Assembly: GCF_024298765.1 (NCBI RefSeq)
Contig: NZ_CP101210.1
Origin: Escherichia coli
GTDB taxonomy: Bacteria; Pseudomonadota; Gammaproteobacteria; Enterobacterales; Enterobacteriaceae
DNA: 64,000 bases
Direction: 5' to 3' (one strand)
Position numbers and translations under genes: made by a program. This document shows, piece after piece, positions 2,778 to 34,675 of the stretch (position 1 is the stretch's first letter; each line of letters opens with the position of its first letter). The notes under the pieces were generated by a model. The model saw only the letters and a list, made by a program, of their open reading frames with translations, ran no database searches and had not been told where the DNA came from.

Positions 2778-3143
2778 ATGTATATTTATTGGATTTTATT
2801 AGGTCTGGCTATTGCTACAGAAATTACCGGTACGCTGTCCATGAAATGGGCGAGCGTCAGTGAGGGAAATGGCGGCTTTATTTTAATGCTGGTGATGATT
2901 TCTCTGTCGTATATATTTCTCTCTTTCGCCGTTAAAAAGATCGCCTTAGGCGTAGCTTATGCGCTGTGGGAAGGTATCGGTATTTTATTTATTACCTTGT
3001 TTAGCGTTTTGTTATTCGACGAAAGTTTATCTCTGATGAAAATTGCCGGGTTAACCACCCTGGTCGCCGGGATTGTGTTGATCAAATCAGGTACCCGTAA
3101 AGCGCGTAAACCTGAACTGGAGGTGAACCATGGCGCAGTTTGA
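2778..3143 (+). CDS. mdtJ: SMR-family spermidine exporter subunit
   Basis: 121 aa, 4-TM SMR-type. AGGAG RBS upstream. 14-nt overlap with mdtI. Confidence 0.92.
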
Positions 3144-32662: not shown

Positions 32663-33688
32663 ATGCACATTTTATCTGTTTCAAAAAAGGAAGTTGGAAG
32701 AGCTGGGGATAGATTAGTTTCTCAGTTTGGTACAGGTGAAAAATATAAAGAGGAAGATGTACAAATTCTTCATGAGTGGAGGATGTTGCATTTATATCCT
32801 TTAAGTAAAATACAATTTTATATGGAAAGAGAGGCTATTTCCTTAAACAAAAATGCGTTACTATCCTCTAGAATTAAGAGGATGCCTTCCATTGTTACTA
32901 AGCTTTCTAGATTTCCTGATATGAAGTTAAATAAGATGCAGGATCTTGGTGGGTGCCGGGCTATTTTAAATAATCTGGATCAAGTGTATGATTTAGTTAA
33001 TAAAATAAAATCATCTAAATTCTCACATGAACTAGTTAGAATGGATGATTACATGATAGACGTGAAAGATTCTGGTTATAGAAGCTTTCATATGGTCTAT
33101 TCATTCCAAAATAAAAAATTTCCATCTTTAAATGGGTTGCGCATTGAAATGCAAATAAGAACAGCTATTCAACATAGCTGGGCTACAGCAGTTGAAATGG
33201 TTGGTTTGTTTCGAAAGGAATCATTGAAATCTGGTTTTGGTGATGCAAGATGGCTTAGGTTTTTTGAATTGGTATCAGAGCTTTTTTATAAACTTGAGTA
33301 TGAAAAAGAACCATCTGGGAGTTATATAAAAATATCAGAAGAATTAAGTTATTTATCCGTCGAGTTGAATGTTTTCGATATATTAGCTGCTTACAATGCC
33401 GTAGTTAGCCATATTGAGGGTAGCAAAAAATATGATAAAGGACTTTGCATAATTGTTGTTGATACCATAAAGCGGAATATAAATATAAAGAGCTTCGAAA
33501 ATCACAATCATGCGAAGGCGGCAGAAGCTTATGTCGAGTCTGAAAAATACTGCGCGGAAAATAAAGGCTGTGAAGTGGCTATGGTTTCTGTTAGTTCAAT
33601 TAGTGAATTAAAAAATGCATATCCTGCTTACTTTTTAGATACGAAAACTTTTTTAAATTATCTCAGTAGGTATGTTTTTATAAAATAA
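32663..33688 (+). CDS. RelA/SpoT-like small alarmone synthetase protein with C-terminal extension; candidate fused toxSAS (CapRel-type) toxin-antitoxin / anti-phage defence
   Basis: RSH synthetase blocks in canonical order: R70-IKRMPSIVTK80, D94-LGGCR99, G138-YRSFH143, E162-MQIRTAIQHSWA174. No HD hydrolase, TGS or ACT domains. About 140 aa of C-terminal extension with Y320-PA-Y323 near the end. Strongly AT-rich relative to its flanks. Confidence 0.8.
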   Translation: MHILSVSKKEVGRAGDRLVSQFGTGEKYKEEDVQILHEWRMLHLYPLSKIQFYMEREAISLNKNALLSSRIKRMPSIVTKLSRFPDMKLNKMQDLGGCRAILNNLDQVYDLVNKIKSSKFSHELVRMDDYMIDVKDSGYRSFHMVYSFQNKKFPSLNGLRIEMQIRTAIQHSWATAVEMVGLFRKESLKSGFGDARWLRFFELVSELFYKLEYEKEPSGSYIKISEELSYLSVELNVFDILAAYNAVVSHIEGSKKYDKGLCIIVVDTIKRNINIKSFENHNHAKAAEAYVESEKYCAENKGCEVAMVSVSSISELKNAYPAYFLDTKTFLNYLSRYVFIK

Positions 33689-34121
33689 AAAATGTTATCT
33701 GGAGTGGTCTGAATTCTACTAACTTAGTTTTTTCAGACCGCTTCTGACCACAATGGCCTGTGAGGTTCTGCTGCTAGTCAACATAAAATAACAAAGCCGG
33801 CAGGTGGTGGTTGTTGTAAAGTTATTCAATGACATTCATGGAGGCTTAAGCGAATTATTTGTCCCTGGTCGGTATGGTGGCAACAGCTTGTTGCGAGAAT
33901 TTGGCTAATTTGGACTGACTTCCGCTCCTTGCTCAAAGCGGACTAGAAGGTTAGCTTGTGTCGGACTTTGCGTATTAAAAGAAGTGCTGGTGGTGACTAG
34001 TGGTTGAGCCCCATTTCCACAGAAAAAATCAGAGAAACTATACCCAATAGTTGTATTGAATCACTGACGAGACAGCCTCATATTCATCAGGACTGGTGTA
34101 CGTCCAATACAGGAGGTTGTG

Positions 34122-34211
34122 GTGCTGGTTCTCAAATGTGCGCTGGCTATTACGGCTGTAATGGCGATTTATTGTCTTGCTATTGTTCTTATGGATCGCC
34201 TTTCTGACTGA
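34122..34211 (+). CDS. candidate 29-aa hydrophobic peptide (type-I-toxin-like)
   Basis: AGGAGG (34111-16), 5 nt, GTG 34122 gives M-LVLKCALAITAVMAIYCLAIVLMDRLSD. The SD can pair with ACAGCCTC (34072-79). Overlaps the Cys/Gly-rich track ORF in another frame. Confidence 0.4.
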   Translation: MLVLKCALAITAVMAIYCLAIVLMDRLSD

Positions 34212-34422
34212 TTTCATATTGGCGAGGTAAAGGTAGTTAAGTAGAATGGCTGCGGGTGCTTGAGGCTATCTGCCTCGGGCATGAACACCAAAGGCAGATA
34301 GAGAAAAGCCCCAGTTAACATTACGCGTCCTGCAAGACGCTTAACATTAATCTGAGGCCAATTTCATGCTAGACACATGTAGGTTAGCCTCTTACGTGCC
34401 GGAAGGCAAGGAGAAGCAGGCT

Positions 34423-34578
34423 ATGAAGCAGCAAAAGGCGATGTTAATCGCCCTGATCGTCATCTGTTTAACCGTCATAGTGACGGCACTGGTAACGAGG
34501 AAAGACCTCTGCGAGGTACGAATCCGAACCGGCCAGACGGAGGTCGCTGTCTTCACAGCTTACGAACCTGAGGAGTAA
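34423..34578 (+). CDS. hokD: Hok-family membrane toxin (RelF)
   Basis: MKQQKAMLIALIVICLTVIVTALVTRKDLCEVRIRTGQTEVAVFTAYEPEE (51 aa) with RBS AAGGAG. The track ORF start at 34366 is an in-frame upstream extension. Confidence 0.9.
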   Translation: MKQQKAMLIALIVICLTVIVTALVTRKDLCEVRIRTGQTEVAVFTAYEPEE

Positions 34579-34646
34579 GAGACCCGGCGAGGGAGAAATC
34601 CCTCGCCACCTCTGATGTGGCAGGCATCCTCAACGCACCCGCACTT

Positions 34647-34675
34647 AACCCGCTTCGGCGGGTTTTTGTTTTTAT
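34647..34675 (+). terminator. rho-independent terminator after hokD
   Basis: AACCCGC-TTCG-GCGGGTT followed by TTTGTTTTT. Confidence 0.75.

Follow-up and report, generated by a model that had tools for sequence, protein, structure and literature searches.

A 29-codon open reading frame (ORF) directly upstream of the hok/sok locus in a Qin-like lambdoid prophage of Escherichia coli is probably an ordinary small gene for a single-pass inner-membrane peptide that serves the prophage as an accessory factor and is partnered with hok. The locus adds a new, so far unnamed member to a known class, the small membrane proteins carried by prophages. The gene is common yet close to invisible in annotation, and through it hok/sok, the most thoroughly studied of the type I toxin systems, gains a conserved, so far uncharacterised neighbour. 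Should the peptide act on the membrane or on Hok, prophage hok phenotypes would be read differently; if it does not, the locus is still a clean example for small-protein annotation. All positions below are those of the window, the whole stretch of 64,000 nucleotides from contig NZ_CP101210.1 that was analysed (Table 1).

In the model that we favour, the gene would be transcribed either from its own promoter or by read-through from upstream. The leader would be unstructured and would expose a strong Shine-Dalgarno sequence (SD), translation would begin at a GUG codon, and the transcripts would continue through the hok promoter into hok/sok. The peptide would insert in the inner membrane as an accessory factor of low toxicity at its native level, and would there act as a modulator of the membrane, of a membrane protein of the host, or of Hok. 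Such a mild modulator of the membrane or of a partner protein is more likely than a classic type I toxin checked by an antisense RNA or a folded leader, because no RNA-level restraint is visible, the SD is strong and exposed, and intact copies occur in many upstream contexts. The low toxicity is suggested solely by the absence of visible control elements, and a cis-antisense RNA from a weak or unusual promoter is possible.

Table 1 Features of the small ORF and the adjoining hok/sok locus (window coordinates)
Feature	Position	Strand	Basis or remark
Conserved non-coding block	33921..34055	.	Upstream of the promoter, type A alleles only
Predicted -35 TTGAAT of the gene's own sigma-70-type promoter	34056..34061	+	Comparison
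Putative anti-SD segment ACAGCCTC	34072..34079	+	Inside the promoter spacer; sequestration unsupported
Predicted -10 CATATT	34079..34084	+	Comparison
Inferred short 5' leader, ~31 nt	34089..34121	+	Start at ~34089-34092 inferred from the -10 position
Shine-Dalgarno AGGAGG	34111..34116	+	5 nt before GTG 34122
Small ORF, 29 codons + TGA	34122..34211	+	Encodes MLVLKCALAITAVMAIYCLAIVLMDRLSD, predicted single hydrophobic alpha-helix
Weak terminator-like hairpin inside the ORF	34146..34165	+	Consensus scan and alignment
hok promoter TTGGCG, 17 nt, TAGAAT	34219..34247	+	Consensus scan; conserved in most hok-linked copies
hok mRNA 5' leader, Sok target region	34254..34428	+	Rfam RF01794, 117 bits, E = 4e-27
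mok frame containing hokD (34423-34578)	34366..34578	+	RefSeq annotates hokD in identical DNA
hok intrinsic terminator	34647..34664	+	First good terminator downstream of the small ORF

The reading frame and its product

Translation of the ORF gives M-LVLKCALAITAVMAIYCLAIVLMDRLSD. Two in-frame GTG codons, at 34119 and 34122, precede the TGA at 34209-34211, and the mechanical ORF list of the window contains a 30-codon version that opens at 34119, together with a Cys/Gly reading of 67 aa (34004-34207) and an antisense ORF of 59 aa (34038-34217). The conserved start is GTG 34122. The GTG at 34119 is replaced in strain CDF6, in XD35 and on the pINV plasmids of Shigella, and the pINV copy carries ATG at the position equivalent to 34122. 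The initial annotation, made from the sequence alone, had chosen this start, and its coordinates for the SD, the start and the stop proved exact. A GTG start is near-universal among the copies of the ORF. A GGAG-type SD core is kept at the same distance from the start in nearly all allele types (5-7 nt across the upstream types) while the surrounding leader has diverged; the SD is weakened to AGAAAG in the loci L091/L131.

Two sets of copies were collected. A degenerate pattern on the C-terminal half of the ORF found 134 copies, which come from 6 species-representative contigs (all Escherichia/Shigella or MAG contigs) and from prophage contigs. A second pattern, which used the flanks only (the CATATT element and the 5' end of hok) and was blind to the ORF, found 120 loci. 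The frame is open in 131 of the 134 pattern-found copies, and the 29-codon ORF is intact in 117 of the 120 flank-selected loci. One of the three remaining loci has lost the stop, which adds 2 aa, and in the other two, which have a divergent allele, the ORF is lengthened to 35 aa by an 11-nt deletion.

The variation among these copies is that of a coding sequence. Variable columns fall 14/5/20 on codon positions 1/2/3 over the 31 nucleotide haplotypes, and 9/3/13 in the N-terminal half, which is free of the constraint imposed by the search pattern; the nucleotide diversity (pi) at the three positions is 0.053, 0.03 and 0.12. The hydrophobic frame stays open with a pairwise pN/pS of 0.34. Replacements in the peptide exchange one hydrophobic residue for another (A/T/V and V/I/L/M) or are of the D/E and R/H kind. 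L8-A9-I10, I16-Y17, L19 and D29 are invariant across the 26 tabulated variants, and D29 is near-invariant overall, being N or E in distant relatives. The Cys/Gly frame has a pN/pS of 1.09, and the position that would serve as its wobble position varies least. The antisense ORF, which is annotated in phage HannyBb, has a pN/pS of 0.58 and is interrupted by stop codons in 7 haplotypes. On the evidence of the alignments, only the hydrophobic frame is a real coding sequence; the Cys/Gly and antisense readings are rejected. The preference of the initial annotation for the hydrophobic over the Cys/Gly frame is thereby borne out. The ORF is under purifying selection and has a conserved SD and start, as is characteristic of bacterial small membrane proteins (under 50 aa, one transmembrane helix).

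A profile search of 1.84 billion representative proteins returned only 17 matches. The relatives at about half identity among them include MLAALKGFVAILAVVAIYCLVVVLMDRLSD, MLVLVLKGALAIAAVAVIYCLVIVLMDRIFE and MSDDISLAMEGALAVVAVVGVYCLVVFLMDRLGN. The distant relatives differ by one additional codon, two additional codons or a new N-terminus, always in frame.

The 29-residue peptide is predicted to form one transmembrane-length alpha-helix, as had been proposed from the sequence. AlphaFold2 models a single helix over residues 2-29 with a pLDDT of 92, and the mean hydropathy of residues 6-24 is 2.58. The charged C-terminal tail is conserved as M-D/E-R/H-L-S-D. Since K5 varies and position 26 is either R or H, the topology of the peptide is ambiguous. 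A conserved single helical face, which would be a sign of specific helix-helix contact, was not significant (p = 0.17). The terminator-like hairpin inside the ORF was considered as an attenuator and rejected: 95% of the cells in the alignment are paired, but the changes are one-sided, with no compensatory change or covariation in the alignment and no excess over shuffled sequences.

Distribution, annotation and related small proteins

The ORF is present in 1954 of 5426 complete E. coli genomes (36%), with up to 3 copies in each, and on about 135 Shigella/EIEC pINV plasmids, which include the invasion plasmids of all four Shigella species. The laboratory B strains REL606 and BL21 also carry it (NC_012967.1, complement 1619975-1620064, in REL606). 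All homologues found belong to Escherichia or Shigella, and one of the protein homology searches used a 42-aa database variant as the query. Identical peptides have been deposited as "hypothetical protein" or "membrane protein" (ACT39199.1 in REL606 and ACT43394.1 in BL21(DE3)), PGAP annotates WP_000960667.1 in strain CDF6, and Prokka calls the pINV copy in M90T. Nearly every sampled RefSeq row, REL606 included, has no feature at the ORF.

No curated family in Pfam-A, NCBIfam, PHROGs or PADLOC matched the peptide, and a Pfam search with three alleles gave no match at E <= 10. Only sub-threshold noise from hydrophobic segments was seen: CoxIIa scored 11 bits, and ATP synthase c scored 13-16 bits with a cut-off of 116. 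The Hok/Gef family (PF01848) was not matched, and BLASTP against the window's own Hok gave no alignment at E <= 100. An origin by duplication of Hok was rejected for this lack of similarity. Full-text literature searches with peptide strings and the accession found no matches. The small ORF is not mentioned in the work on hokW-sokW and phage release (PMC8621323), in a survey of Hok (bioRxiv 10.1101/2025.08.07.668861) or in a survey of prophage small RNAs.

Close parallels in gene design are the small regulatory proteins of the enterobacterial inner membrane, MgtS, MgrB, AcrZ, PmrR, MgtR, KdpF and CydX, which, like the product of the small ORF, are at most 50 aa long with one transmembrane helix. 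Each of them works by binding to a larger protein of the membrane. The small ORF shares with them an ordinary arrangement of promoter, SD and ORF without an RNA antitoxin, and purifying selection on the helix; it differs from them in being prophage-borne and confined to Escherichia and Shigella, and it has no homology to those families. It also resembles the prophage "moron" genes, with which it has in common a place in a variable cargo slot and a mosaic pattern of presence and absence; the promoter predicted for most alleles would be a further likeness. Unlike a textbook moron, it has no terminator of its own and travels with hok rather than alone.

Promoter and linkage to hok

Alignment of the upstream types shows several replacements of the DNA ahead of the ORF, while two hexamers, their 17-nt spacing and the SD have remained constant. 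In types A-G and at locus L170, TTGAAN (TTGCTG in type D) stands exactly 17 nt before CATATT, with unrelated sequences in the spacer. No other non-coding element of the module is as conserved as the -10 hexamer, whose pi is 0.016 over all allele types; the corresponding values are 0.095 for the SD, 0.18-0.24 for the leader flanking it, 0.22 for the promoter spacer and 0.28-0.30 further upstream. Of 82 unique upstream sequences, 67 have a promoter-like pair at this point of the alignment in a lenient promoter scan. Apart from this pair, the scan found two widely shared sites, the hok promoter and, on the minus strand of type A alleles only, a weak site. The distant relative L170, whose upstream neighbour HigBA is divergent, keeps the predicted promoter. 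The promoter is not universal, since it is missing or unrecognisable in type H alleles, which have TCTCAT in place of the -35, and in the distant relatives L167 and L169, where the ORF has no own promoter and lies 35-50 nt behind a co-directional gene; about 15 of the 82 unique upstream sequences have no recognisable -35. From these comparisons we infer that a moderately weak sigma-70-type promoter drives the gene in the present allele.

The start map of Shigella M90T pWR100 (PMC7132871, Table S3) has no entry at ~91028 on the minus strand, the start predicted for the pINV copy. The same table places icsP starts at 90709 and 90726 and another start at 91318. The pINV copy sits in DNA that is reported to be H-NS-silenced.

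Upstream of the promoter in type A alleles lies the conserved non-coding block. It contains an inverted repeat, AACTAT (34036-41) / ATAGTT (47-52), and a minus-strand promoter-like site with the -10 TATAGT at 34042 to 34037. Its pi of 0.06-0.08 is about that of synonymous sites. As a structured RNA the block was rejected: RNAalifold gave -4.2 kcal/mol with a positive covariation term and no covariation. The prophage Pas small RNAs do not account for it either, as they sit elsewhere in prophages.

The stop of the ORF lies 7 nt before the hok -35, which agrees with the position directly upstream of hok given in the initial annotation. The ORF thus ends before the hok promoter and is outside the hok transcript. 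No terminator was found between the stop at 34211 and the hok promoter at 34219, so transcripts of the gene should run across the hok promoter into hok/sok. In identical RefSeq DNA the gene order is Cro/CI, YdaT, a hypothetical protein, DUF977, a RelA/SpoT-domain gene, the unannotated small ORF, hokD, rem, ydfU and Q. The module, which is the small ORF followed by hok/sok, occupies a variable cargo slot of Qin-like lambdoid prophages of Escherichia and Shigella, with the replication genes on one side and the Q region on the other, and its neighbours in the slot change from locus to locus (RelA/SpoT PDC-S33, DUF4145, TPR, QueH, alpha/beta hydrolase, HigBA).

hok begins within 7 nt downstream of the ORF in about 119 of the 134 copies, and it is also found downstream in 3 of the 3 distant relatives whose contigs reach far enough. 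As hok follows the ORF even in distant relatives, the pairing is old and not a recent accident. The small ORF and hok nevertheless each occur without the other. At least 15 loci, of the XD35 type, have the ORF with another right-hand neighbour, and homology stops at the hok -35; the pINV plasmids have the intact ATG-start copy upstream of icsP, and of hok they retain only a stump of the promoter and 5' stem-loop. Conversely, the ORF has disappeared from many hok loci: a QueH cargo in EC958 leaves only its last 7 codons beside hok, and the remnant beside hok in O157 is degenerate. Matches to the hok region were found in 4766 genomes, against 1954 of 5426 for the ORF. The arrangement resembles that of mok, which is likewise a small frame upstream of hok in the same orientation; mok, however, overlaps hok inside the hok mRNA, whereas the small ORF ends before the hok promoter and occurs also without hok.

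Type I toxin and other readings

It is unlikely that the peptide is a type I toxin, which would depolarise or permeabilise the inner membrane and whose mRNA would be silenced either by a fold that occludes the SD or by a small RNA, antisense or encoded nearby. The initial annotation had pointed to type I toxins for both the peptide and its control. With regard to the peptide the likeness is good. Type I toxins of this shape include TisB (29 aa), ZorO (29 aa), ShoB (26 aa), DinQ (27 aa) and Ibs (19 aa), and the peptide resembles these and Hok in its size, single hydrophobic helix and short charged end. It also shares with type I toxins a location on a mobile element, and it adjoins another type I system, hok/sok. 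A near-universal GUG start would keep translation low, and in type A alleles a divergent RNA could be transcribed from the minus-strand promoter-like site in the upstream block. Against this, no toxin model of Pfam or NCBIfam was matched, the peptide has no sequence or HMM relationship to the type I toxins, and the intact ORF persists without the type A upstream block (types B-E, REL606).

The proposed control by SD sequestration is not supported. As had been noticed, the segment ACAGCCTC can indeed pair with GAGGTTGT (34113-20) in a duplex of 8 bp, one of them G-U, whose energy is -10.6 kcal/mol. The segment, however, lies in the predicted promoter spacer; it would therefore be absent from the gene's own transcript and be transcribed only in read-through RNA. 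Of the dinucleotide-shuffled sequences, 8.4% have an equivalent helix (8 bp, at most one G-U pair) that joins the SD/start region to the 76 nt upstream. The minimum-free-energy fold of 34060-34211 does not contain it, and in the ensemble it is a minority conformer, whose probability is 0.2-0.3 when the construct is short and 0.04-0.06 when it is long. The SD is about equally accessible with or without the upstream partner, and its unpaired probability is 0.39. In types B-G the segment is replaced by unrelated sequence, and within type A the pairing is disrupted by single changes on one side or the other, with no compensating change. Excess structure was not found in the leader, in a longer mRNA or in the upstream block, the fold-energy z-scores being near 0 (-0.36 for 34060-34211, +0.20 for 34089-34253 and +1.25 for 33921-34253). 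The mRNA does not appear to be held translationally inert by its leader. E. coli type I toxin mRNAs have long leaders of roughly 100-300 nt that are folded or processed, whereas the leader of the small ORF would be short and unstructured with an exposed SD.

A partner RNA was not detected either. On the minus strand, no promoter is conserved across the ORF or downstream of it, and we found no direct or inverted repeat that links the leader to the neighbouring DNA; pairs of the tisB/istR type are linked by a direct repeat. Duplex energies with the upstream block on either strand, including the block as a divergent small RNA that pairs with the ORF mRNA, were no better than those of shuffled sequences. 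The same was true of the complementarity with a Sok-like RNA, and an action of Sok on the small ORF was rejected on this ground. Rfam gave no match at the locus besides sok. A 10-nt stretch at 34071-80 matches the 5' end of hok (34261-70) at 90%, which we take as chance. Among the features that define a type I toxin, only the small hydrophobic membrane-targeting peptide is found, and this by its predicted shape alone; the toxin-like peptide shape suggested initially stands, no antisense RNA, long structured leader or match to a toxin family was found, and the toxin label is unproven.

It is quite unlikely, though compatible with the favoured model of a membrane accessory factor, that the peptide is specifically a membrane partner of Hok, either a brake or immunity factor against leaky Hok or a co-toxin that times Hok-assisted lysis. 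This reading is allowed because hok is deeply syntenic with the ORF, the peptide is constrained, and no RNA-level control of its own is seen. If it is true, prophage hok loci would be three-component systems of a small peptide, Hok and Sok, not pairs of a toxin and an antisense RNA.

We regard as improbable a third reading, in which the act of translation matters and not the peptide. A leader-type ORF of this kind would tune the expression of hok/sok or of downstream late genes; it would couple read-through from pR or from upstream cargo to ribosomes, or it would interfere with the hok or sok promoters. The 7-nt distance from the stop to the hok -35, kept in nearly all hok-linked copies with no intervening terminator, is consistent with this, as are the deep synteny with hok and the promoterless ORFs of L167 and L169 close behind a co-directional gene. 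The amino-acid sequence itself is constrained, however, with its low pN/pS, its invariant residues and its hydrophobic-for-hydrophobic replacements. Furthermore, the frame is intact in the hok-less loci and on pINV, where hok is deleted, and hok is functional at many loci where the ORF is truncated or degenerate.

It is highly improbable that the locus is no gene and that its frame is kept passively, in young DNA that recombines with hok or by overlap with DNA or RNA signals upstream of hok: most copies are 87-100% identical, the family is limited to Escherichia and Shigella, the pINV copy has no called transcription start and the ORF is often lost through cargo insertion, but among the frames that stay open only this one combines three-base periodicity with a low pN/pS, the SD and start are kept next to a leader that has diverged, and the relatives at about half identity keep the frame through in-frame indels.

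The cargo slot and the adjoining non-coding block

The small ORF, the 29-codon membrane-helix gene that precedes hok, lies just downstream of a variable prophage segment. In the window this segment carries a gene for a RelA/SpoT-domain protein, which gave a hit with E = 5e-119 to PDC-S33, one of the candidate defence families in PADLOC. Other prophages hold DUF4145, TPR, QueH, alpha/beta hydrolase or HigBA genes in the same position. The slot between DUF977 and hok looks like a hotspot for defence genes or other cargo.

Coordinates of features at the small ORF and hok, in the window and at related loci (L numbers)
Feature	Location	Strand	Remarks
RelA/SpoT-domain protein, 341 aa	window 32663-33688	+	PADLOC match PDC-S33
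Non-coding block, roughly 135 bp	window 33921-34055		shared by most (type A) alleles
Type H palindrome CTCATCAaTGATGAG	window equivalent 34056-34070		L057, L058, L037, L036 and others
Rfam isrK match, sub-threshold	window 34587-34668		25.7 bits vs gathering score 50
Small ORF copy and hok remnant	L006 1530-1800		pINV-like plasmid NZ_CP065614.1
Hydrophobic ORF, 27 aa, MTWPEAFTTVGIAIAVALVVYSICRWG	L026 7627-7710		
Perfect 22-nt palindrome CGATATGGGAATTCCCATATCG	L167 about 3000-3040		between small ORF stop codon and hok promoter
Small ORF remnant	L164 1480-1545		O157:H7
Small ORF remnant	L165 1499-1525		EC958

The non-coding block has a variable left boundary, which falls at the cargo junction, and a diversity close to that of synonymous sites. 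No conserved RNA structure was found in the block. It contains the inverted repeat AACTAT (34036-34041)/ATAGTT (34047-34052), which overlaps a promoter-like site on the minus strand with TATAGT as its -10 element.

Variation around the small ORF

Alleles of the small ORF were classed by their upstream sequence as types A to H. In type H (about 10 unique alleles), TCTCAT replaces the -35 element TTGAAT of the predicted promoter, a change that creates the perfect palindrome spanning the promoter. This palindrome could be a regulator-binding site, or it could mark an inactivated promoter. Another palindrome was found as an insertion in the distant relative L167, the sole case seen in which anything separates the small ORF from hok.

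Types C and D carry a second hydrophobic ORF directly 5' of the small ORF. In the L026 example the start codon shares bases with the stop of the gene before it (ATGA). This ORF matched no family, and its terminus ...ICRWG* recurs in L167.

Plasmid copies and remnants at hok

About 135 Shigella/EIEC plasmids of the invasion type (pINV) carry an intact copy of the small ORF with an ATG start. The copy lies 290-380 nt upstream of icsP/sopA and is adjoined by remnants of the hok promoter and of the 5' stem-loop of the hok mRNA. Because these hok remnants lie with the small ORF upstream of icsP, icsP now appears to occupy a former prophage hok slot. The M90T dRNA-seq list contains no transcription start for this copy.

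At many hok loci nothing but a few 3'-terminal codons of the small ORF is left. These codons are bordered by a QueH cargo in ST131 (EC958), and the O157 remnant is degenerate and has lost the stop codon. Two loci (L145 and L147) carry a divergent allele (MLALTCVLAIVAVLVIYCLVVAFMERFSD...) that has lost its stop codon through an 11-nt deletion, so that the reading frame enters the -35 region of hok and reaches 35 aa. At the other end of hok, the sub-threshold isrK match spans the 3' end and the terminator and is probably just the hok terminator hairpin.
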